A stretch of DNA of 41,138 nucleotides from Candidatus Barnesiella excrementipullorum (GCA_019114665.1 DXFB01000026.1:1-41138), one strand, 5' to 3'. Shown: positions 9,332 to 34,746, counted from the stretch's first letter. Notes: generated by a model from the letters alone, not told the origin. A program made the numbers and translations.

Positions 9332-9760
9332 TTACTTGCGTTTGGTCGATTTTGAGCGTTGCGACCCGCGGGCGGCTGCCGGTTTTTTGGGAGATGTGGG
9401 ACGCGAAGCCGAGGATTGTGCCGGGCGGTTGGCCGCTGTCTTGCGGGTTGCGCCGGTACGGCGTGCCGCACCCCTGCTGCCCGACCTTTGTGTACTCTGC
9501 TCTTCGGTATCTTCGACTCTGCCTTTGGGAGGTCCCCAGCGGTGTTTTTTAGGACGGTTTTCGAGAGGGACGAAGTAGAGCGGTTCCCCGTCGATGCGCA
9601 CTTTATCCTCCTCTCCTACACGGTCGCCGGGTATGGCCGGCCGGTTATTGATGGTTACGCGTCCGTCGGCGATGAGGCGGTCTGCTTCGCGGCGCGAGCA
9701 AAAGCCGTAGTCGCTAATCATTTTATTGATGCGGGTGCCTTGATTTTCGGTTTCTTTCAT
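9332..9760 (-). CDS. S4-domain RNA-binding protein with a long basic, disordered C-terminal tail
   Basis: The S4 motif is RINKMISDYGFCSRREADRLIADGRVTINNRPAIPGDRV. The tail is rich in R, K, S, T and A. Confidence 0.8.
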   Translation of the reverse strand: MKETENQGTRINKMISDYGFCSRREADRLIADGRVTINNRPAIPGDRVGEEDKVRIDGEPLYFVPLENRPKKHRWGPPKGRVEDTEEQSTQRSGSRGAARRTGATRKTAANRPAQSSASRPTSPKKPAAARGSQRSKSTKRK

Positions 9761-9781
9761 AACTAATGGTTCTGTAATTGT

Positions 9782-10618
9782 TTATCCGAGCTCTATCTGT
9801 TCTGCCACGATGTCGTCGTGCAGGAAGAGGGTTGCAGTCTCCATAAACTTGGCGGGCGACTCGGTTGTGAGATAGGTACACTCTCCGTGGCGTGAACAGG
9901 CCGACTCTATCTCGGGGTGCCGGCGCAGATAATCTTGCAGGCTGGCTGCTACGACATGGCCTTGCGATAGCAATGTGATGTGCGAGGGCAGGCTGGCGCG
10001 TATCTTGTCGTAAATCAGCGGGTAGTGTGTGCAGCCGAGGATGACGGTGTCGATGAGGCTGCTTTGTGCCAGAAGCGCATCGATATATTTCGTTACGAAG
10101 AAGTCGCACCCGGCATTATGAGTTTCGTTGTTCTCTATAAGGGGTACCCACATGGGGCAGGGCTGTCCGTAGAGTTGATAGTGGGGAAATAGTTTGGCAA
10201 CCTCGGCGGTATATGAGCCCGAGAGTACGGTTCCCGGCGTTGCCAGCAAACCTATGCAACCGGTGTGTGTCATGCCGCCAATGGCCTCTACGGTAGGGCG
10301 TATGACCCCCAAGACGCGGCGCGAGGCATCGATATGGGGCAGGTCGCACTGTTGTATGGTGCGCAGTGCCTTGGCCGATGCCGTGTTGCAAGCCAGGATG
10401 ACGAGGCGGCATCCGCGGTCGAAAAGATATTGTACCGCTTCTAAGGTGAAGCGATAGACAATCTCAAACGAGCGTGTGCCGTATGGGGCGCGTGCATTGT
10501 CGCCTACGTATATGTAGTCGTAGTCGGGCAGAAGGCGGCGAATCTCAGAGAGGATGGTAAGGCCTCCGTATCCCGAATCGAATACTCCGATAGGAGCGGG
10601 TGTTGCATGGGTTGTCAT
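9782..10618 (-). CDS. murI: Glutamate racemase
   Basis: Motifs present are IGVFDSGYGGLTIL, ACNTASA and GCTHYPL. The ORF is open to 10666, but that extension contains a terminator hairpin. The ATG at 10618 (MTTHATPAPIGVFDSG) gives a canonical N-terminus. Confidence 0.9.
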   Translation of the reverse strand: MTTHATPAPIGVFDSGYGGLTILSEIRRLLPDYDYIYVGDNARAPYGTRSFEIVYRFTLEAVQYLFDRGCRLVILACNTASAKALRTIQQCDLPHIDASRRVLGVIRPTVEAIGGMTHTGCIGLLATPGTVLSGSYTAEVAKLFPHYQLYGQPCPMWVPLIENNETHNAGCDFFVTKYIDALLAQSSLIDTVILGCTHYPLIYDKIRASLPSHITLLSQGHVVAASLQDYLRRHPEIESACSRHGECTYLTTESPAKFMETATLFLHDDIVAEQIELG

Positions 10619-10632
10619 AGGTGTATTGGTAC

Positions 10633-10666
10633 AAAAAACTGCGTCGGGGGAACTTCTCCCCGACAC
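10633..10666 (-). terminator. Intrinsic terminator or attenuator between ompH and murI
   Basis: The minus-strand RNA reads GUGUCGGGG-AGAAGUUC-CCCCGACGC followed by AGUUUUUUG. That gives a 7-9 bp GC-rich stem and a U6 tract. Confidence 0.7.
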
Positions 10667-10699
10667 AGCTTATCTCTTGACAGGCCTCGAAAGGTGCTG

Positions 10700-26215: not shown

Positions 26216-26293
26216 TGTGTCGTTATCACTATATCGGTTGGTTATTGCGGCTTGCATATTGAGCCGCGTTTTCTCTCACTCTTGTTATCCTTC

Positions 26294-29254
26294 CTATAAG
26301 AGGCATCCCCGGCGGGCGATGTAGCGCAATAGTCGGGCATATATGGGCGATGTTTCGAGCAGTGTCCGGTACCCGATGATTACGATTTGTTCCCGGGCTC
26401 TTGTGATGGCAACGTTGAGTTTGCGGTCTATCGGCCTGCCCTCCTCTTCGCTGCACTGCGACAGGAATGCGAGTTGCTCGGCCGTGGTTACGGCGCACGA
26501 AAAGATGATGATGTCGTTTTGTGAGCCTTGGAATCGCTCTACGGTGTCGATGCGTATTTTGTCGCAATCGGGCAGTTGCAGCAACTCCAGCTGTTGCCGG
26601 ATGGCGGCTATCTGGTTGCGATAGGGGGTGATGATGCCTATGGCTTTCTCGGGATGGAGCCTGTTGCCGTTTCTCTCGTTGAGCTTGTAATAGGCCTCCG
26701 TCACTCGTGCCACGGCAAGAGCTTCGTTCAGGTTGGCCGTGTTTGCGGTTTCTGCGGTTGGCAATGCCGGCGGTTCTATATTGATGAATGCCAGGCGTGT
26801 AGTAGCGAGCATCTTCTCTTCGGCGCACATCCCTTCATAGGGTTTATAGGGCAGCGTTCTTCCTTGATGCTTTGCCCCGCCGGCCTTTAACTTGTTGTCA
26901 TAAAATGCCTCCGAAGCAAAATCGGCAATATCGGGGTGCATGCGCCACTGTCGCGACAGCATGCCTGTCAGTTGGGGGAAGGCGCAGTATCGGCGGTATA
27001 ACCGTTCGAAGAGCGACATGCGACAGTCGGTAAGACCACACTCGGCAAGGCATTCCTCTTCTATGCGCGACTCCGCCTCCTCTTGCAATACGATGGCGGG
27101 CAGTTGTTTGTGGTCGCCGATGAGTACAAAGCGTTCTATGGCGGGATGCCCTTTGCCGTCGGTGGCTGCCAGCAAGCCCAGGAGCTGTGTTTCGAGTAAC
27201 TGGGATGCTTCGTCGATAATGGCGGTGTCGAACTGTTTTATCCCGAATAATTCGGGTTTGGCCAGCAGCGAGACCAGCGATGCGACGTAGAGGCGGCAGC
27301 CGGCAAGGTGTTGTATCACTTCGTCGCGGCGGCGGCAGTCGGTGAGCCGGTTGTTGATGAGGCGGTGGCGATATGCCGCGGCGCAGGAGTTTTCCATGCC
27401 GATGCGGATATAGTCGAGCCCTTTTTCTTCCTCCAAGTGAGAGCAAATCTCATCGACAGCCCGATTGGTGTAGGCTACCAGTAACAGGTTGCGTTGTGGC
27501 GATGCCATGATTTCGCGCACCATGCTCATCAGTGCTACCGATGTCTTGCCGGTGCCGGGAGGGCCCATCAGCAGGTAGATTTCGCCGTCACCGGCAGCCG
27601 TGGTCACGATTTGCTCTATCTCTTCCGATGCGTAGGGGTAAGAGGGCTTTATGGGAGTACCTATGCGGGGACGGTAGTCGCCCTGCCCCAGCAGCAGGCG
27701 GCGGCGTGGCTCGGGTGCCTGCAAGAAGGCGAAGAGTCCGGCAAATTGCATTTTGAAGGTCATGTCGGAATAGTCGGCCTCTAACACATAGAGGTCGCCG
27801 CAGATAAAGAGTGTGCGGCTTTGCTGCCTGTCGCGCAGGCGCACCACGACTTCGCCCGAGGTTACGGTCGCGATTACACCGCGAAACAGGATGTTGTCGG
27901 CGGCCCGGCTTGTTTCGTCGCCGTAACGATATAGCAGCACGATGTCGCCGTCGCGGAATTTGGGCATGGCCGTCTCTGTCTCTTGCCTGTATGAGAAGCG
28001 TAAGAGCGGGTTTTCGTCGCCGGCATGACTCTCTTGCAGAGAAAGAGGTGCCATAATGCAGCCCAAGGCGCGTTTCTCGGCAATGGAGGCTTGCCATAGT
28101 GCGGTCGTGCCCGTGTGTTCGGCGGTCGTGCGCGATACTTTCGACAGATACTGCTCCCGCGAAAGGAAACGATAGAAGCGGTCGAAATAGCGTGCCGAAA
28201 CCTCATCGGCGCTGAATCGGCGCAATGAGGCGCTTACTTGATACAGGTCGTTCTCGACATATCGCACCAAGGGGTGGGAGGGCTGTTCGTATGCAGGATG
28301 CTCCATAGCCTCTGTCAAGGTGCGCAGCGGGTGCTTGTCGGTCGTATAGCGAAGCTCTTCCAGAACGATTCTGTTGCGCACGCCTATGGCCTGTTGCATA
28401 AGCGGGAGCGACAGATGGTTCTTGACCAGTGAGTCTTGCTCGTAGCGCGAGTAGAGTGCATAAAAGTCGGGGTGTTCTACCCCCAGCGAGTAGTGGAGCA
28501 TGAGTTGGTAGAGGGAGAGTTGCACCCGGTGCGTATCGACGATGTATCCGCCCGACTTTTTGCCCGATTTCAATTCGATGCCGGCGGCTTGTCGGCCGTC
28601 GGTCTGCAAAAAGTCGAGCCGCCCGCGCAACCCTAAGGCCGGAGAGATGAATGTGGGCTCTGTTATACCCTCGCTGCATCGGAGAGAGGCTTTGGGGAAC
28701 TCCTGTTTTACGGCTTGCAGCAGATGTTTGTGGTGTAAGGCCAGGTCGGTAAAGAACGAGGCATCGATGTCGTCGCACACGGCATATTCCAACGGCGATG
28801 AGAGGAAAACTTTCTTTATTGCATCGGCGAGTTCCACCGAGTCGGGGGTGTCGGCATTGACCATCTCGTCGAAAATGAGGTTGGCGGCATTTCCCAACAA
28901 GATGTGGCGGTTGAGGTGCCGGGGACGCATGCGGTCGGCAAAATAGAGCTGCCACAGGTGGCCGAAGGTGCGGCAGCATTCGGCCAGGAGGCTGACGTCA
29001 ATCAGGAAGTCGGGCTCTGCTACGATAAACCGCGGTAGGAGGGAGATGCCGTCGTCGGTGGCATCGAGCAGGTGCAGCTTGTTGCCCGGTTGCAGCAGCG
29101 GGAGGTAGCCGCCCGTTGCGAGGTCGCCCCCCATCAATGAGATGCGACGCTCCGTATTGTCGGAGCGTCGCACTCTTATTTCGTGGCTCTCCACAGCTTG
29201 CACTACGGCATATAGGCACGAAGTGTGGGGTTGCTGCGGGGCATGCACATCCAT
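26294..29254 (-). CDS. PD-(D/E)xK nuclease fused to an SF1B (Dna2/Upf1-like) helicase
   Basis: The nuclease motifs are GRLD (D214), IELKSGK (E227, K229) and QLSLYQLM. The helicase motifs are GPPGTGKT (aa 564-571), IIDEASQ, LIGDHKQLPA, RMHPDI, TVERFQGSQNDIIIFS and NVAITRAR. Confidence 0.85.
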   Translation of the reverse strand: MDVHAPQQPHTSCLYAVVQAVESHEIRVRRSDNTERRISLMGGDLATGGYLPLLQPGNKLHLLDATDDGISLLPRFIVAEPDFLIDVSLLAECCRTFGHLWQLYFADRMRPRHLNRHILLGNAANLIFDEMVNADTPDSVELADAIKKVFLSSPLEYAVCDDIDASFFTDLALHHKHLLQAVKQEFPKASLRCSEGITEPTFISPALGLRGRLDFLQTDGRQAAGIELKSGKKSGGYIVDTHRVQLSLYQLMLHYSLGVEHPDFYALYSRYEQDSLVKNHLSLPLMQQAIGVRNRIVLEELRYTTDKHPLRTLTEAMEHPAYEQPSHPLVRYVENDLYQVSASLRRFSADEVSARYFDRFYRFLSREQYLSKVSRTTAEHTGTTALWQASIAEKRALGCIMAPLSLQESHAGDENPLLRFSYRQETETAMPKFRDGDIVLLYRYGDETSRAADNILFRGVIATVTSGEVVVRLRDRQQSRTLFICGDLYVLEADYSDMTFKMQFAGLFAFLQAPEPRRRLLLGQGDYRPRIGTPIKPSYPYASEEIEQIVTTAAGDGEIYLLMGPPGTGKTSVALMSMVREIMASPQRNLLLVAYTNRAVDEICSHLEEEKGLDYIRIGMENSCAAAYRHRLINNRLTDCRRRDEVIQHLAGCRLYVASLVSLLAKPELFGIKQFDTAIIDEASQLLETQLLGLLAATDGKGHPAIERFVLIGDHKQLPAIVLQEEAESRIEEECLAECGLTDCRMSLFERLYRRYCAFPQLTGMLSRQWRMHPDIADFASEAFYDNKLKAGGAKHQGRTLPYKPYEGMCAEEKMLATTRLAFINIEPPALPTAETANTANLNEALAVARVTEAYYKLNERNGNRLHPEKAIGIITPYRNQIAAIRQQLELLQLPDCDKIRIDTVERFQGSQNDIIIFSCAVTTAEQLAFLSQCSEEEGRPIDRKLNVAITRAREQIVIIGYRTLLETSPIYARLLRYIARRGCLL

Positions 29255-29267
29255 ATCTTGCAGAAGC

Positions 29268-30458
29268 TTATTTTCTGAGTTTTCCGCCTTTGGTACCGCC
29301 TTTCACGCCATTGCCGAGGGCGAAGATGTTTTGTGAGTAACTTACGGTTTTATGGGCTTGCTCGCGTTTCCGCTTCAAGGCGAGCGATACCAGCTTGTCC
29401 ATCAATTCGTCGAAAGGTACGCCGGTGGCCTCCCACAGATAGAAGGAGAACGAGCCCGGGATGGCGTTTATTTCGTTGACATATATGGCTCCCGAGTTGT
29501 CGTCGATCATCACGTCGACACGAGCCACGCCGTGGCACGAAAGCACGCGGAATGTCTCGCCGGCAAAGAAGCGTACCCGTTGTGTTTGCTCCTCTGAGAG
29601 GTCGGCCGGGATGCGTTTTTCGCTGGCTTGCATACCGCTCTCGCCTTTGCTGCCGCCCATGTATTTGTCCTCGTACGAGAGAATCTTGCCGCTCTTGATG
29701 GGCTCCTCGCATACCGAGGTGGCGTAGTCGTCACAGTCGCCCAATACCGAGCAGTTGATCTCTTTGAGGTTCTCTACCAAATCTTCTACGATGAGGCGTG
29801 TAGAGTAACGGCTGGCCTCTTCGACTTTTGTAATCAGTTCCTGGCGGTTGTCGGCGCGGGCAATGCCTACGCTCGACCCTAAGTTGGCAGGCTTTACGAT
29901 GACCGGATACCCTATCTTGCGCTCTATCTCCTCTACCCACTTGTCGCGAGTCGTAGCCCACTGCTTGTCGGTGAACCATACATAGTCTACCACGGGGATG
30001 CCGCTGTGTTCGAGCACCATCTTCATGACAATCTTATCCATGCCTATGGCTGCCGAGAGGGTGTCGCAGCCGGCAAAGGGGATGCCGATAGTCTCTAATA
30101 GGCCCTGAAATACGCCGTCTTCGCCGTTCGTGCCGTGCAGTGCCGGGATGACTACGTCGAGGGTCGCTGCAACGGGCGAGCCGAAAAGCGGTTTCTTGCG
30201 CCGGTAGAGGTTGTAATCGCCATACTCGGGATTCATGTACACCTCTTCGCAGCGGCTTTTCAGGGCTGCCATATCTTTGTAGTTCGATACCGACAGGAGA
30301 GGCTCGCCACTGTACCAGCGTCCCTCTTTCGATATATATATCGGTATGATGTTGTAGCGTGAAGCATCTATGGCATACATGGCTTGCAGTGCTGTCAGTA
30401 CCGATATCTCATGCTCTACCGACCTGCCGCCGAAGAATACGCCTATTGTCGTTTTCAT
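29268..30458 (-). CDS. D-alanine--D-alanine ligase family ATP-grasp enzyme (long, DdlA-like, atypical)
   Basis: Motifs present are GGRSVEHEISV, VIVKPANLGSSVGI, SYEDKY, ARVDVM and VNEINAIPG. It has an inserted omega-loop segment and a Gly/Lys-rich C-terminal tail. Length is 396 aa. Confidence 0.85.
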   Translation of the reverse strand: MKTTIGVFFGGRSVEHEISVLTALQAMYAIDASRYNIIPIYISKEGRWYSGEPLLSVSNYKDMAALKSRCEEVYMNPEYGDYNLYRRKKPLFGSPVAATLDVVIPALHGTNGEDGVFQGLLETIGIPFAGCDTLSAAIGMDKIVMKMVLEHSGIPVVDYVWFTDKQWATTRDKWVEEIERKIGYPVIVKPANLGSSVGIARADNRQELITKVEEASRYSTRLIVEDLVENLKEINCSVLGDCDDYATSVCEEPIKSGKILSYEDKYMGGSKGESGMQASEKRIPADLSEEQTQRVRFFAGETFRVLSCHGVARVDVMIDDNSGAIYVNEINAIPGSFSFYLWEATGVPFDELMDKLVSLALKRKREQAHKTVSYSQNIFALGNGVKGGTKGGKLRK

Positions 30459-30490
30459 GTGCTTATGATTTTATATCTTGATTCTGTCGT

Positions 30491-32086
30491 TTATTTGAAT
30501 GTGTCGGGCAGGTCGTTTTCATACAGTACCACATCGCCGGCACGGGCTATCTCTACCAGGCGGGCTTGTGCCGTGGCAAAACTGTCGGCGCAGAAGACGC
30601 CCTCTACCTTCATGCCTCCTGCTTGTAATCCTTCGAGGATGTCATCTCTGTTGTATGTGCCCACGACCATGACATAATCTGCAACTTTCGCCATTTGTTC
30701 GCCGAACCGGCGGTTGTATTCGGCCTGTTTGTTGCCCAGCTCTATCATGCCCGGGGTAATGACGATGCGGCGCGTTGCCCGCACGCGGCGCAATACATCG
30801 AGGGCCATGCGAGCTCCGTCGGGGTTGGAGTTGAAGGCGTCGTCGATGATGGAGAGCCCTCCGGGGGCACGCTTGATGTTGAGGCGGTGTTCGACCTGTT
30901 CTATGCGGCTCACGGCATAGCGTATGGCCTCTTCGGGCACATTCAGGTGCAAGGCCGCGATGACGGCGGCCATGAGGTTCGAGAGGTTGCAGTCGCCCAC
31001 CAGTTGAGTCGTTAGCGGCAGCCTGTGCCCGCCTCCTACGATGGTAAAACGGGTCTCTATCTCATCGTAAACAATATCTTCTACATGGTAGTCGGCCTTC
31101 CCGGCTTCGAGGGCATAACGCAGCACGGGTACGTTGGTGACAGGTCGTGAGGCTACGTAGGGGAAATCGTTGTTGAGTATGCCCAGCCCGTCGGAGGGAA
31201 GGGCGTCGATGAGTTCGAATTTGGTGCGCTGTACGTTCTCTATCGTTTTGAACGACTCCAAATGTTGTTCGCCTACCGCGGTGACAATGCCTATCGATGG
31301 AGCCACGAGGTCGCATATCTCCTTGATGTCGCCTATCTGCTTGGCGCCCATCTCTACAATGAAGATGTCGTAGTAGGGTTTCATCATTTCGCGTACGGTG
31401 CGTATCACACCCATGGGGGTGTTGTAGCTGCCCGGGGTCATGATGACGTTGTATTTCTCGCTGAGGATGCGGTAGAGATAGTGCTTGGTGCTGGTCTTGC
31501 CGTAGCTGCCTGTAATACCTATGATGGTGAGGTGCGGCATGTCGGCGAGGATTTTTTTCGCCTCATTATAGAACCCGCGGTTTATCAGTTTCTCGACAGG
31601 TATCATGAGGGTATTGGCACACAGCATCATTACCCAGGGGAAGGCAAGGGTTGCTATCAGTGTAAGGGCGGTTGCATATTGCTGTGCATCGGTGGGGAAA
31701 ATGGCTGCTATGGCAATGGTTACTATCGTAGTCACTACCCATGTTGCCACATAGAGCCTTGTGGCGCGGTGTGTGAATACCACAGGTTTTTTGTAGCGGG
31801 TGCGCAGCTCCCTGACGGCAAAGAGGATGAGGGCAATGGCAATAACGGCTTCGATAACCGTTGTGGCAAAGGGGGCGAAACTCGAACCGTAGAGCAGAAG
31901 CAGAAAGTAGAGGGTGAGGCTTCGCGGCGAAGAGAGGATGCCGCTGTTGCGCAGCCACCGCAGGTATCGGTTGTTGCGGTAGGAGTTTTGTTGCATCATT
32001 TGCAATTCGTAGCGCAGCGCCACAAAGAGGTAGAACAGCAGCGCAATCGTGAATATTACATGTACAATGGTGTGAATCAATTGCAT
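30491..32086 (-). CDS. MurF-like Mur ligase with a polytopic N-terminal membrane domain in place of the UDP-MurNAc-binding domain
   Basis: Residues 1-165 form 4-5 hydrophobic helices. These are followed by IIGITGSYGKTSTK (P-loop), FIVEMGAKQIGDI, TAVGEQHLESF, IIDDAFNSNPDG and ITPGMIELG, which are the MurF central and C-terminal signatures. Confidence 0.8.
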   Translation of the reverse strand: MQLIHTIVHVIFTIALLFYLFVALRYELQMMQQNSYRNNRYLRWLRNSGILSSPRSLTLYFLLLLYGSSFAPFATTVIEAVIAIALILFAVRELRTRYKKPVVFTHRATRLYVATWVVTTIVTIAIAAIFPTDAQQYATALTLIATLAFPWVMMLCANTLMIPVEKLINRGFYNEAKKILADMPHLTIIGITGSYGKTSTKHYLYRILSEKYNVIMTPGSYNTPMGVIRTVREMMKPYYDIFIVEMGAKQIGDIKEICDLVAPSIGIVTAVGEQHLESFKTIENVQRTKFELIDALPSDGLGILNNDFPYVASRPVTNVPVLRYALEAGKADYHVEDIVYDEIETRFTIVGGGHRLPLTTQLVGDCNLSNLMAAVIAALHLNVPEEAIRYAVSRIEQVEHRLNIKRAPGGLSIIDDAFNSNPDGARMALDVLRRVRATRRIVITPGMIELGNKQAEYNRRFGEQMAKVADYVMVVGTYNRDDILEGLQAGGMKVEGVFCADSFATAQARLVEIARAGDVVLYENDLPDTFK

Positions 32087-32880
32087 GATGATTGTTTGTT
32101 ATATATATCTTCTTTGAGGAATGCCATGACTATGGCTCTGAAACGGAATGGATTGTCGAGGAACGAATAGTGCCCGGCATCGTCGATGACCGCTAAGTCG
32201 GCGTGGGGGATGAGCCGCAGCATTACCCGTGCTTCACGCAGCGGTGTGGCGCTATCTTTGGCTCCCCATATCAGTTGCACGGGGCATTTGATGAGGGGCA
32301 TCACGGTTTCGAGGTATTCGTTGACTACTTTTACAAAGATGCGGCGCATCATGCCGTCTACGGCGTTATAGTCGGCCGAGCCTGCCGAGCGGCGCATTTT
32401 TTCCAAACGTTGCTCGGCTTTCTCTTTCCCTAAGAGGAGGCGGAGCAGCTGTTTACCGAGTTTGTATGTATAGACTTTGTAATAATACTTCAACGACCGG
32501 CGAGGCTTTGCTCCGGCGGCATCTGCCAATATTACTTTATGTGTATGGTTGCGCGATGCGTAGAGGATAGAGACCCGTCCGCCGAAAGAGTGCCCTATCA
32601 AGGTGGGCGATTCTATGCCGAGGGCTGCAACAAAGGCTTCGAGCATGCGGGTATATTCTTCTACGCCCCACACGGAGGAGGGTGTCTCGCTCCCGCCGAA
32701 GCCGGGAAAATCGAGTGAATATACCGTGAAATGCGGCGATAGCATGCTCTCTATCGAGGCGAGAGTGGTCATATTGCATCCCCAGCCGTGCAGCAATATC
32801 ACTGCACGTCCCGAACCGCACACTTTGTACTGTACTTCGGTGTCGCAGAGTTTTATACGGGTTGTTGTTGCGCCTTGCAT
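32077..32880 (-). CDS. Alpha/beta-fold hydrolase
   Basis: Motifs present are ILLHGWGCN, the nucleophile elbow GHSFGG (Ser98) and a C-terminal DDAGHYSF (His). It overlaps the start of the MurF-like gene by 10 nt. Confidence 0.8.
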   Translation of the reverse strand: MQGATTTRIKLCDTEVQYKVCGSGRAVILLHGWGCNMTTLASIESMLSPHFTVYSLDFPGFGGSETPSSVWGVEEYTRMLEAFVAALGIESPTLIGHSFGGRVSILYASRNHTHKVILADAAGAKPRRSLKYYYKVYTYKLGKQLLRLLLGKEKAEQRLEKMRRSAGSADYNAVDGMMRRIFVKVVNEYLETVMPLIKCPVQLIWGAKDSATPLREARVMLRLIPHADLAVIDDAGHYSFLDNPFRFRAIVMAFLKEDIYNKQSSCN

Positions 32881-32900
32881 TCTTTTGTGTTTTGGAGCTA

Positions 32901-32908
32901 CAAAAGTA
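32901..32908 (-). promoter_or_regulatory. Possible internal -7 box (TActTTTG) ahead of the hydrolase/MurF-like/Ddl-like genes
   Basis: The plus-strand sequence is caaaagta. It lies 21 nt upstream of the hydrolase ATG inside an 83-nt gap. The -33 element is imperfect (TTTA). Confidence 0.35.
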
Positions 32909-32963
32909 CATTATTCTACCGATAAATGGCGTACCCTTGTGAGAGTTTTTCCACGATGGCTCC

Positions 32964-34010
32964 TTACAGGCTTGTGTGCCCAAGCACTTTTTCGACCACG
33001 CGCTCGGGCCTGATTGCTCTCAGGCAGGCATAGTCGCCTCTGTAACAAGGCTTATTGCCGAAGACCGAACAGGGACGGCATGGCAAGTCGCTTTGTATGA
33101 CGTCGGCCGGAGAGGCGGTGTACCCCAAAAATCCGGCATAGGGGTGTGTAGCTCCCCATACAGATACAACCGGAACGCCGGCCAGTGCGGCCAGGTGCAT
33201 GTTGGCAGAATCCATCGAGAGCATCACGTCGAGGTAGCTCATCAGGGATAGTTCTACCTTGAACCCGAGGCGTTGTGATGCCAATGAGATGACTCGCGGA
33301 TAGCGTTCCTGCCACCGGGCGAGGAGTTCGGCTTCGCTGCCGGCACCGAAGAGGAAGATGTGCAGCCTTTCGTGCCGACTTAACAGCGCTACGACGCGCT
33401 CCATTTCGTCGGGAGGGTATATCTTCCCTTCGTGTTTGGCAAAGGGTGCGATGCCTATCCAATATTCTCCCTCCTTTTTGGGGGGCGTTAGGGCGGACAA
33501 TAGCCCGGCATCGCCTTTCCCCTCGGGGTATAGAGTTGTGAATTGTGGGGTATAAGGCATTGACATGGCCCTGAAAACGTCGGCATAACGTTCGGCCATA
33601 GGCTTCAAGGGGTGTAATTCTTTGTGGTGCCGGCTGGTGAGCTGCCTTTTGGATGCGCGCCCTTTGTCGATGACAAAGGTGGGCTTTCCGGCCAGGCGGA
33701 AGAGCAGGCGGAGTGTCTTCGTGCGTAAAACATTGTGCAAATCGGCCACGGCATCGATGCCCAAGGCCGATAGCTCTTTATATAATAACCACAGCCCAGC
33801 CATCCCTTTGTGCCGGGCTTTTACGTCGGCGATATATATTTGCAGATTGGCGGGAGCATACATGAAGAGTGATGACGTTACCCGTTGTGTCAGGATTACA
33901 AATGTGGTCTCGGAATAGGCTCGACATACCGAATATATTTGCGGTATGGTCATGGCCACGTCGCCTAACGCCGACAGGCGCATGACAAGCACTTTCTTAT
34001 ATGTTGTCAC
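32964..34010 (-). CDS. Glycosyltransferase family 9 (heptosyltransferase-like)
   Basis: KVLVMRLSALGDVAMTIP is the typical GT9 N-terminus. The C-terminal half has MDSANMHLAALAGVPVVSVWG. Length is 348 aa. Confidence 0.85.
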   Translation of the reverse strand: MTTYKKVLVMRLSALGDVAMTIPQIYSVCRAYSETTFVILTQRVTSSLFMYAPANLQIYIADVKARHKGMAGLWLLYKELSALGIDAVADLHNVLRTKTLRLLFRLAGKPTFVIDKGRASKRQLTSRHHKELHPLKPMAERYADVFRAMSMPYTPQFTTLYPEGKGDAGLLSALTPPKKEGEYWIGIAPFAKHEGKIYPPDEMERVVALLSRHERLHIFLFGAGSEAELLARWQERYPRVISLASQRLGFKVELSLMSYLDVMLSMDSANMHLAALAGVPVVSVWGATHPYAGFLGYTASPADVIQSDLPCRPCSVFGNKPCYRGDYACLRAIRPERVVEKVLGHTSL

Positions 34011-34043
34011 AAGGCTGCTGTTTATCGCTTATGCCCCTGTCGG

Positions 34044-34649
34044 TTACTTCTTCCCGTATAGTATGGGATTGAGTGCGGGGTCGTTATACATTTTCATCTG
34101 TTTATACACCTTCATATACTTATGTCCGGCTGCAATGTCGGCAATCAGCTGGTCTATCGCCGTGGATAGGTCTTCGCGTTGTTGCAGCAGTACGGCAAGT
34201 TTGGCGCGGCACTTCTCTATGTGCTCTTCCGAGGCGTCGTTTCGCTCTACCTCTTGTTGCATGTGATATATCTTCAATGCCAATATAGACAGGCGGTCTA
34301 TGGCCCAAGCCGGGCTTTCGGTATTGATGGTGGCATCGGGCAGGGGGGTAACCGCTTTGTACAGGTCGAGGAAGTAGCTGTCTATCAGCTCTACGAGGTC
34401 GGTACGGTCTTGGTTGGAGCGGTCGATGCGACGCTTGATGGCCAATGCCTCTATCGGGTCGATGTCGGGATTGCGGATGATGTCTTCCAAATGCCATTGC
34501 ACGGCATCGATCCAGTTCTTGGTGAACAGGAGGTTTTCTATTGTACACTCGGGGTAGGGATTCTCTACATGGGCATTTACGTCGTCGTGTTTGTGATACA
34601 ACGCTGTCGTAGCCTCGAATATATGGTTACATGTTTCGCTGATGCTCAT
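34044..34649 (-). CDS. DUF4254-like all-helical protein of unknown function
   Basis: 201-aa ORF with no signal peptide. It lies 33 nt upstream of the GT9 gene, a pairing I recall as typical for DUF4254. The family assignment is from memory and is not verified. Confidence 0.6.
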   Translation of the reverse strand: MSISETCNHIFEATTALYHKHDDVNAHVENPYPECTIENLLFTKNWIDAVQWHLEDIIRNPDIDPIEALAIKRRIDRSNQDRTDLVELIDSYFLDLYKAVTPLPDATINTESPAWAIDRLSILALKIYHMQQEVERNDASEEHIEKCRAKLAVLLQQREDLSTAIDQLIADIAAGHKYMKVYKQMKMYNDPALNPILYGKK

Positions 34650-34713: not shown

Positions 34714-34746
34714 CAAATATAGCATAAAGCATTTGTATTTGCCAAA
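34714..34746 (-). promoter_or_regulatory. Candidate promoter of the DUF4254-GT9 gene train
   Basis: Read on the minus strand, TTTG (34746-34743) is followed by a 21-nt spacer and then TAtaTTTG (34721-34714). This lies about 65 nt upstream of the ATG at 34649. Confidence 0.4.

Follow-up and report, generated by a model that had tools for sequence, protein, structure and literature searches.

A three-gene operon at positions 29268–32880 of a 41,138-nucleotide (nt) stretch of Candidatus Barnesiella excrementipullorum DNA (GCA_019114665.1 DXFB01000026.1:1-41138; the whole stretch is referred to below as the window) was analysed. It encodes a serine hydrolase, a MurF-type ligase carrying a transmembrane domain (TM-MurF) and a partner ligase of the D-alanine–D-alanine ligase (Ddl) family. 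The operon is widespread and uncharacterised, and it presents MurF and Ddl chemistry in a new architecture with a near-obligatory third enzyme. The final cytoplasmic reactions in the making of peptidoglycan precursors are those of MurF and Ddl. The module very probably both synthesises the D-Ala-D-Ala terminus of peptidoglycan stem peptides and attaches it; because the operon lies within the core cell-wall gene cluster in some bacteria, an unrecognised membrane-bound completion of the stem peptide is suggested. The full statement, a membrane-associated module for D-Ala-D-Ala synthesis and addition that works on a lipid-linked acceptor, is put forward tentatively, with somewhat less than an even chance of being right in all of its parts. 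The features on which the analysis is based are as follows.

32077..32880, minus strand: cytoplasmic alpha/beta-fold serine hydrolase (Abhydrolase_1), an open reading frame (ORF) of 267 amino acids (aa)
30491..32086, minus strand: MurF-like ligase (TM-MurF), an ORF of 531 aa
31547..32086, minus strand: membrane domain of the ligase, residues 1–180, with five predicted transmembrane (TM) helices and a long connecting helix (hydropathy, AlphaFold2)
30491..31546, minus strand: MurF-type core of the ligase, comprising the central ATP-binding and C-terminal domains (Pfam, PDB, Foldseek)
29268..30458, minus strand: long Ddl-family ATP-grasp ligase of an operon-specific clade, an ORF of 396 aa (NF002528)
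29268..29363, minus strand: C-terminal tail of the Ddl, approximately residues 366–396, consisting of S-x-x-NI(L/F) and then a Gly/Lys-rich GGxKGxKGxK stretch

The catalytic core of the ligase was identified as MurF-type by several routes. The Pfam domains Mur_ligase_M and Mur_ligase_C were assigned to residues 191–378 and 400–521, respectively, MurF chains were the best sequence matches in the PDB (E = 6e-32) and the top ten Foldseek matches to the AlphaFold2 model were all MurF. The P-loop TGSYGKTS, residues E244, H274, K288, N366 and R400, and the motif DDAFNSNP line up with the catalytic residues of Escherichia coli MurF, and these MurF-type residues are kept across 81 family members. The databases annotate the window ligase as MurF. 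Against the hidden Markov model (HMM) TIGR01143 (murF) it scored 230.1 bits, below the cut-off of 288.6, and the alignment covers model positions 73–402 only, starting from residue 185 of the protein. As the match begins only at model position 73, the N-terminal uridine diphosphate (UDP)-binding domain is missing. Five TM helices were located within residues 1–160 (hydropathy and the AlphaFold2 model; predicted local distance difference test score, 89.4), and all TM-MurFs among the matches listed likewise have the five-TM domain standing instead of the UDP-binding domain.

Residue conservation in the membrane domain was assessed using representatives only 33–55% identical to the window ligase. 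Q31 and Y35 of the motif HMxQLNSY, T104, R106 and R109 of the motif KKPLVFTxRxKRL, and P162 of the motif PxE are invariant, and E164 of the last motif is present in at least 90%. By the positive-inside rule, HMxQLNSY and KKPLVFTxRxKRL would form cytoplasmic loops beside the catalytic core. In a Pfam scan of 20 ligase family members, no family was matched by more than one member in this domain. A profile search of the PDB found no relative of it (best E = 1.1), and Foldseek with the isolated domain gave nothing at E <= 0.001, with a TM-score of at most 0.30.

The partner Ddl scored above the cut-offs of NF002528 (329.4 bits against 262) and TIGR01205 (275.6 bits against 245.65) and matches Staphylococcus aureus Ddl (PDB entry 2i80) end to end (E = 6.5e-65). 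The window protein is 100% identical to HIX44797.1 from Candidatus Barnesiella excrementipullorum. Active-site residues were compared in 74 partner Ddls using DdlB numbering: E15 was kept in 73 (with one gap), and H63, K97, K144, S150, S151, E180, E187, K215, Y216, R255, D257, E270, N272 and G276 were kept throughout. Y216 is a mark of dipeptide rather than depsipeptide ligases. The clade is set apart by the substitution of Y210 by Leu, by about 8 aa inserted into the omega loop behind K265-Y266, by the loss of 2 aa at each of two places around the S281 loop and by the C-terminal tail motif, which was found in partner Ddls of every sampled phylum and was absent from the canonical Ddls compared. 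The tail may serve in docking to the membrane or to a partner. A Gly/Lys-rich GGxKGxKG sequence occurs twice in partner Ddls, in the omega-loop insertion (residues ~268–279) and in the tail (residues 366–396). A change of DdlB S281 to Tyr appeared in the first alignment only and was discarded, the Ser being retained once canonical long Ddls had been added. In the tree the partner Ddls form one monophyletic group, with canonical Firmicutes Ddl outside it.

The hydrolase was assigned to Abhydrolase_1 (PF00561; E = 9e-26, 91 bits against a cut-off of 25.8), and the best named relative in the PDB is 6i8w, an alpha/beta fold hydrolase. Ser98 (in GHSxGG), Asp209 and His237 are invariant over 71 distinct orthologues, as are an HGW oxyanion motif and a cap motif, S168-x-D170-Y171, and the enzyme appears from these residues to be catalytically competent. 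No hydrophobic segment was seen in it by hydropathy. Among the named equivalogs, an EstV-type lipase scored best (114 bits against a cut-off of 300), with BioH, MenH and others lower.

These results bear out an original prediction, made from the sequence of the window alone, of what the three genes encode. HMM alignment, hydropathy and AlphaFold2 agree on the polytopic MurF-type ligase without a nucleotide-binding domain that it had described; the Ddl-like ligase is long and atypical, as it had stated, with 396 aa and a clade-specific insertion, deletions and tail; and the catalytic triad and the fold match identify the serine hydrolase whose gene overlaps that of the ligase. Tight packing on the minus strand, with a 10-nt overlap, a 32-nt gap and an 83-nt upstream gap, had also been described, and the ORF coordinates agree with this. 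The hydrolase and ligase genes overlap by 10 nt when the ATG start of the ligase is used and by 4 nt (TTGA) with the TTG start, which gene callers prefer; translational coupling of the two genes is compatible with either start.

Gene order was counted in GTDB species-level loci with room on both sides (n = 70) and in metagenome loci (n = 39). The order hydrolase, TM-MurF, Ddl was found in 61 of the 70 and 33 of the 39, respectively, and in one further metagenome locus the genes run Ddl, hydrolase, TM-MurF. The spacer between the ligase and Ddl genes in related loci is typically 5–90 nt. The operon is flanked by unrelated housekeeping genes, which differ even between Barnesiella species, and no fourth conserved gene was found, the next ORF cluster occurring in nine of 82 loci. 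The distance matrices of the three proteins correlate (r = 0.75–0.80, Mantel p = 0.001). Conservation of the three genes as a unit goes beyond chance, and the three proteins co-evolve; the co-occurrence of the triad, which had been proposed as a check, is strong and cross-phylum, with varying flanks.

Among the matches listed were 150 full-length TM-MurF relatives (about 500–560 aa), with identity down to 36%. A representative search gave 4,108 clusters (50% identity) at E <= 1e-30 and 21,018 at E <= 1e-10. Carriers in the Bacteroidales include Barnesiella, Muribaculaceae, Alistipes and Rikenellaceae; the others are many Clostridia, Bacilli (Gracilibacillus and Pseudalkalibacillus), Tissierellia, Erysipelotrichaceae, Haloplasma and Poribacteria. 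Individual genomes with the operon include those of Barnesiella viscericola, Gracilibacillus massiliensis Awa-1, Butyrivibrio sp. FCS014, Peptoniphilus stercorisuis DSM 27563 and Poribacteria OZ245030.1. The TM-MurF tree broadly tracks taxonomy. No TM-MurF was found in PLSDB, and the 'plasmid' records OY725989.1, NC_022111.1, NZ_CP093325.1 and others in that database are chromosomes or fragments carrying housekeeping murF and ddl.

The operon has entered the division and cell wall (dcw) cluster in two different ways. In three Poribacteria it occupies the murF slot, in the order rsmH-ftsL-ftsI-murE-[hydrolase-TM-murF-ddl]-mraY, followed in one of them (locus L036) by murD-ftsW. In a metagenome contig (L178) it occupies the ddl slot, in the order murD-ftsW-murG-murC-murB-[ddl-hydrolase-TM-murF]-ftsQ-...-ftsA-ftsZ. 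These are two independent integrations and, taken with the MurF and Ddl identities of the proteins, they leave a peptidoglycan role as the only well-supported reading. The position in the cluster suggests that the module is the housekeeping route in Poribacteria and in L178, and TM-MurF may well be the housekeeping enzyme in Poribacteria. A UPF0236-family transposase gene lies between the hydrolase and TM-murF genes of L036 (6478–7797), inside the dcw cluster.

In the Bacteroidales, canonical full-length MurFs were identified with TIGR01143 in Phocaeicola massiliensis (393 bits, 431 aa) and Prevotella (362 bits, 471 aa), which shows that this order does not have TM-MurF as its universal MurF. 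A fusion of Bacteroidales MurF to alanine racemase (NF008897) was considered and did not apply to Phocaeicola or Prevotella, the MurFs of which score only 240 bits against a cut-off of 804 on that model. No second copy of murF or ddl was present inside the window. The partner Ddls of Gracilibacillus and Pseudalkalibacillus are 36–41% identical to canonical Bacillaceae Ddls, which are 61% identical to each other, and about 48% identical (median) to the partner Ddls of other phyla. These values indicate paralogy in the Firmicutes, the partner Ddl there being a likely paralogue of the canonical enzyme.

Other arrangements were seen in a minority of loci. The order Ddl, hydrolase, TM-MurF is found in some environmental lineages (L156, L164, L175 and L178). 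The hydrolase and TM-MurF genes occur without a downstream Ddl in Muribaculaceae-like loci (L012, L015, L017, L105, L106 and L160), which implies that another Ddl can supply the dipeptide. TM-MurF without an adjacent hydrolase or Ddl was found in Chitinophagales, Balneolales and two metagenome contigs of >1.2 Mb (L024, L061, L146 and L150); in L024 (4357–7213) it is followed by a gene for a protein of the beta-lactamase family whose hydrophobic N-terminus resembles a signal peptide. Apparent hydrolase–ligase fusions in L059 and L064 (ORFs of 806 and 779 aa) were rejected on account of a stop codon between the genes. 'Members' of TM-MurF clusters with 259 and 393 aa were likewise rejected as truncations, being the neighbouring hydrolase and Ddl; the inclusion of these neighbours in TM-MurF clusters at 90% identity (P0047 and P0048) looks like a clustering artefact, possibly arising from read-through gene calls.

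In the mechanism that we propose, the Ddl-clade enzyme would form D-Ala-D-Ala, or a very close analogue, at the membrane, to which its Gly/Lys tail may recruit it. TM-MurF would retain standard MurF chemistry, in which ATP activates the terminal carboxylate of the acceptor and the dipeptide attacks, and would join the dipeptide to a precursor carrying the N-acetylmuramic acid (MurNAc)-tripeptide. The acceptor would be held at the membrane, most likely as undecaprenyl-pyrophosphoryl-MurNAc-tripeptide (lipid I or lipid II without the dipeptide) and not as free UDP-MurNAc-tripeptide: the membrane domain stands in the position of the UDP domain and has invariant basic and polar residues (Arg, Lys, Gln, Tyr and Thr) at the cytoplasmic interface, which favours a diphosphate-lipid carrier over UDP. 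The hydrolase, with its catalytic residues intact, would be a stoichiometric partner, and the three proteins may form a complex. The part of the hydrolase would probably be editing; we speculate that it could trim or de-esterify stems with a wrong end, or by-products of dipeptide synthesis such as D-Ala-D-Lac. A bolder version, in which TM-MurF acts on lipid I/II on the membrane's inner face to complete or repair stem peptides at this stage, with a recruited Ddl and a proofreading hydrolase, replacing the cytoplasmic MurF step in some phyla such as the Poribacteria, is considered unlikely.

Several points weigh against this mechanism. The conserved cytoplasmic loops could equally bind UDP-diphosphate or lipid-diphosphate. 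If TM-MurF were the sole MurF of the Poribacteria, the simplest description would be an ordinary membrane-bound UDP-MurNAc-pentapeptide synthase. A reaction at the lipid stage would then need MraY to transfer the tripeptide form. Finally, the editing role of the hydrolase is a guess, because its likeness is only to generic esterases and lipases.

The strongest alternative is a membrane-tethered pair of isoenzymes catalysing the textbook reactions. Ddl would supply D-Ala-D-Ala and TM-MurF would couple it to UDP-MurNAc-tripeptide in soluble form; UDP binding would pass to the membrane domain, which would also set the product beside MraY, and the hydrolase would be an accessory. Such a pair would be the housekeeping MurF and Ddl in lineages such as the Poribacteria and a second copy elsewhere. 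The murF slot just before mraY in the three Poribacteria, whose cluster lacks a canonical murF, and the occupied ddl slot in L178 speak for it, and a tree that tracks taxonomy, as for a long-resident gene, the size of the family at E <= 1e-30 and the retention of all MurF and Ddl catalytic residues are also in its favour. A tether, however, needs only one helix on an intact MurF, whereas here the UDP domain has been lost and a five-TM domain with invariant polar residues has been gained. The near-obligatory hydrolase, apparently intact in its catalytic residues, is left unexplained, and the partner Ddl of the Bacillaceae is not an orthologue of the canonical enzyme, the identities given above marking it as a specialised paralogue. 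Taken by itself, the tethered pair is credible, if on balance doubtful; between it and a lipid I/II tripeptide acceptor the odds are roughly even.

The separate clade of the partner Ddl, with its insertion in the specificity-determining omega loop, Leu in place of Y210 and deletions beside the S281 loop, would also suit the synthesis of a different stem terminus, D-Ala-D-X (with D-Ser, D-Lac or Gly, for example, as X), in a Van-like or stress response in which the hydrolase strips off the usual terminus and TM-MurF puts the other in place. The combination of a ligase with a hydrolase recalls the van operons, and the Ddl does score 234 bits on the VanG model. This score is nevertheless far under the cut-off of 495, as is that on the VanA model (174 against 775); Y216 is invariant in partner Ddls, no VanX, VanY, VanH, VanT or VanRS genes or any other conserved neighbour were found, and the operon occurs in Gram-negative Bacteroidales and in housekeeping dcw clusters. 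We regard a modified stem end as highly improbable.

An acceptor outside peptidoglycan fares no better. It could be a membrane compound with a carboxylate (a lipid, a lipid-linked glycan or a lipopolysaccharide or teichoic acid precursor) or a small lipopeptide, following the logic of CapB or cyanophycin synthetase. A novel membrane domain for which no relative was found and a hydrolase akin to lipases and esterases would fit, as would the genes for a GT9 glycosyltransferase and a DUF4254 protein that precede the operon in the window and the Acyl_transf_3 gene behind it in one Barnesiella species. Neither set of neighbours is conserved, however; the ligase is nearest to MurF and not to PgsB, FolC or CphA, its partner is a true Ddl and the two independent dcw-cluster insertions indicate peptidoglycan, while Gram-positive and Gram-negative carriers have few other envelope acceptors in common. 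It is judged very unlikely. A role in anti-phage defence was rejected, since PADLOC gave no match for the three proteins and only the helicase encoded downstream matched, weakly, as MkoA-like.

Two intergenic stretches complete the layout of the operon.

32881..32963, minus strand: upstream gap of 83 nt with a candidate Bacteroidetes-type -7 box (sequence read)
30459..30490, minus strand: spacer of 32 nt between the ligase gene and ddl (sequence read)

The sequence TACTTTTG at 32901–32908 (minus strand), 21 nt before the ATG of the hydrolase in the upstream gap, fits TAnnTTTG, the -7 promoter consensus of Bacteroidetes. The predicted box in this gap is therefore present, and it is a candidate promoter, the role being one that we infer from the match. 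TAnnTTTG occurs 33 times across the window against an expectation of 19 ± 4, and is thus enriched. No terminator-like sites were found on the minus strand within the three genes or just past ddl.

The remainder of the window is an ordinary Bacteroidales chromosome (BamA, Skp, UppS, MurI, RibD and PFL). Directly upstream of the operon, at 32964–34649 (minus strand), are the genes for the DUF4254 protein and the GT9 (heptosyltransferase-like) glycosyltransferase. This pair has its own TAnnTTTG boxes at 34714 and 34743 (minus strand) and, among carriers of the operon, is found next to it only in the nearest Barnesiella relatives (L001 and L007). Downstream, a 986-aa protein combining a PD-(D/E)XK nuclease with an SF1 helicase is encoded at 26294–29254 (minus strand), its start lying 13 nt past the ddl stop. 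It resembles the PLuB, MkoA and IGHMBP2 helicases, with every score under the cut-off, and is not conserved beside the operon elsewhere; in the Barnesiella species of L088 a helicase of the same domain content is encoded about 4.5 kb from the operon. In L088–L090, from one Barnesiella species, the Acyl_transf_3 membrane acyltransferase gene (9618–10694) begins 49 nt past the operon; the TM-MurF of this species belongs to a cluster about 63% identical to the window protein. Many long ORFs overlap or oppose real genes, for example at 31262–32170 (plus strand), 26229–26828 (minus strand) and 28203–28979 (minus strand), and one of the overlapping ORFs, of 302 aa, is antisense to the ligase gene. 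The long overlapping and antisense ORFs are taken to be by-products of base composition and not genes.

In full-text literature searches, neither a membrane-integral MurF nor a hydrolase/TM-MurF/Ddl operon was found described, in keeping with the earlier remark that no characterised system with exactly this architecture was known. A survey of Mur chimeras (PMC10214165) makes no mention of a transmembrane MurF, and MurF is not mentioned in a survey of the lipocone and of membrane domains in peptidoglycan metabolism (PMC12419801). In the representative search, TM-MurFs account for approximately a fifth of the MurF-like clusters (about 4,100 of about 21,000). Their existence implies either that precursors are recognised in an unrecorded way or that a pathway considered completely mapped has a new step at the lipid stage. 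The D-Ala-D-Ala end is what vancomycin and D-cycloserine target and what penicillin-binding proteins use. Because its members are frequent among gut Bacteroidales and Clostridia, the family could have consequences for antibiotic susceptibility, for the proofreading of precursors and for the design of inhibitors. The operon offers a testable three-gene system with defined substrates.

Among known systems, the closest to the ligase is MurF itself, with which it shares the central and C-terminal domains, the P-loop, the catalytic residues for Mg, carbamyl-Lys, His and Arg, and, in Poribacteria, the murF slot. It differs from MurF in the five-TM domain that stands in place of the UDP-binding N-domain, in a TIGR01143 score below the cut-off and in nearly always having a hydrolase and a Ddl of its own as neighbours. 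TM-MurFs are 25–37% identical to canonical MurF, and those of different phyla are 32–40% identical to each other. The order of the operon, ligase then ddl, is the reverse of the ddl then murF order of Bacillus thuringiensis and S. aureus. The partner Ddl resembles the long-type enzymes (NF002528, DdlA-like) in passing the subfamily cut-off, in its full-length match and in keeping all catalytic residues, K215 and Y216 among them, but it forms a separate clade with the omega-loop insertion, Leu at Y210, the deletions around the S281 loop and an NI(L/F) and Gly/Lys tail of about 30 aa.

The Van clusters (VanG and VanA) similarly place a Ddl-family ligase gene beside hydrolytic accessory enzymes; the scores far below the cut-offs, the lack of VanX/Y/H/T/RS genes and the retained Y216 separate the operon from them. 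Membrane anchoring is a feature of PgsB, and in CphA ATP-grasp and Mur-type modules are joined. The ligase is like CapB/PgsB and cyanophycin synthetase in being a Mur-ligase-superfamily enzyme outside the classical Mur pathway, and analogies to CapB and to cyanophycin synthetase had been drawn on first reading. They were not supported: no PgsB or CapB model was among the ligase matches reported at E <= 0.01, and the score on the cyanophycin synthetase (CphA) model was 47.6 bits against 850. Furthermore, the ATP-grasp and Mur modules are separate genes here, and the operon differs from both CapB and CphA in the genuine Ddl that serves as partner and in its dcw-cluster context.

MurT, of the lipid II isoglutamine synthase MurT/GatD, is a Mur-type ligase without a UDP-binding N-domain that acts on a lipid-linked precursor; it is soluble, its partner enzyme is a glutaminase and its chemistry is the amidation of D-Glu. 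The ligase scored 22.8 bits on the MurT model against a cut-off of 800, and the likeness is accordingly one of working logic only and not of membership: an N-domain-less Mur ligase with a dedicated partner, for which MurT/GatD sets the lipid II precedent.

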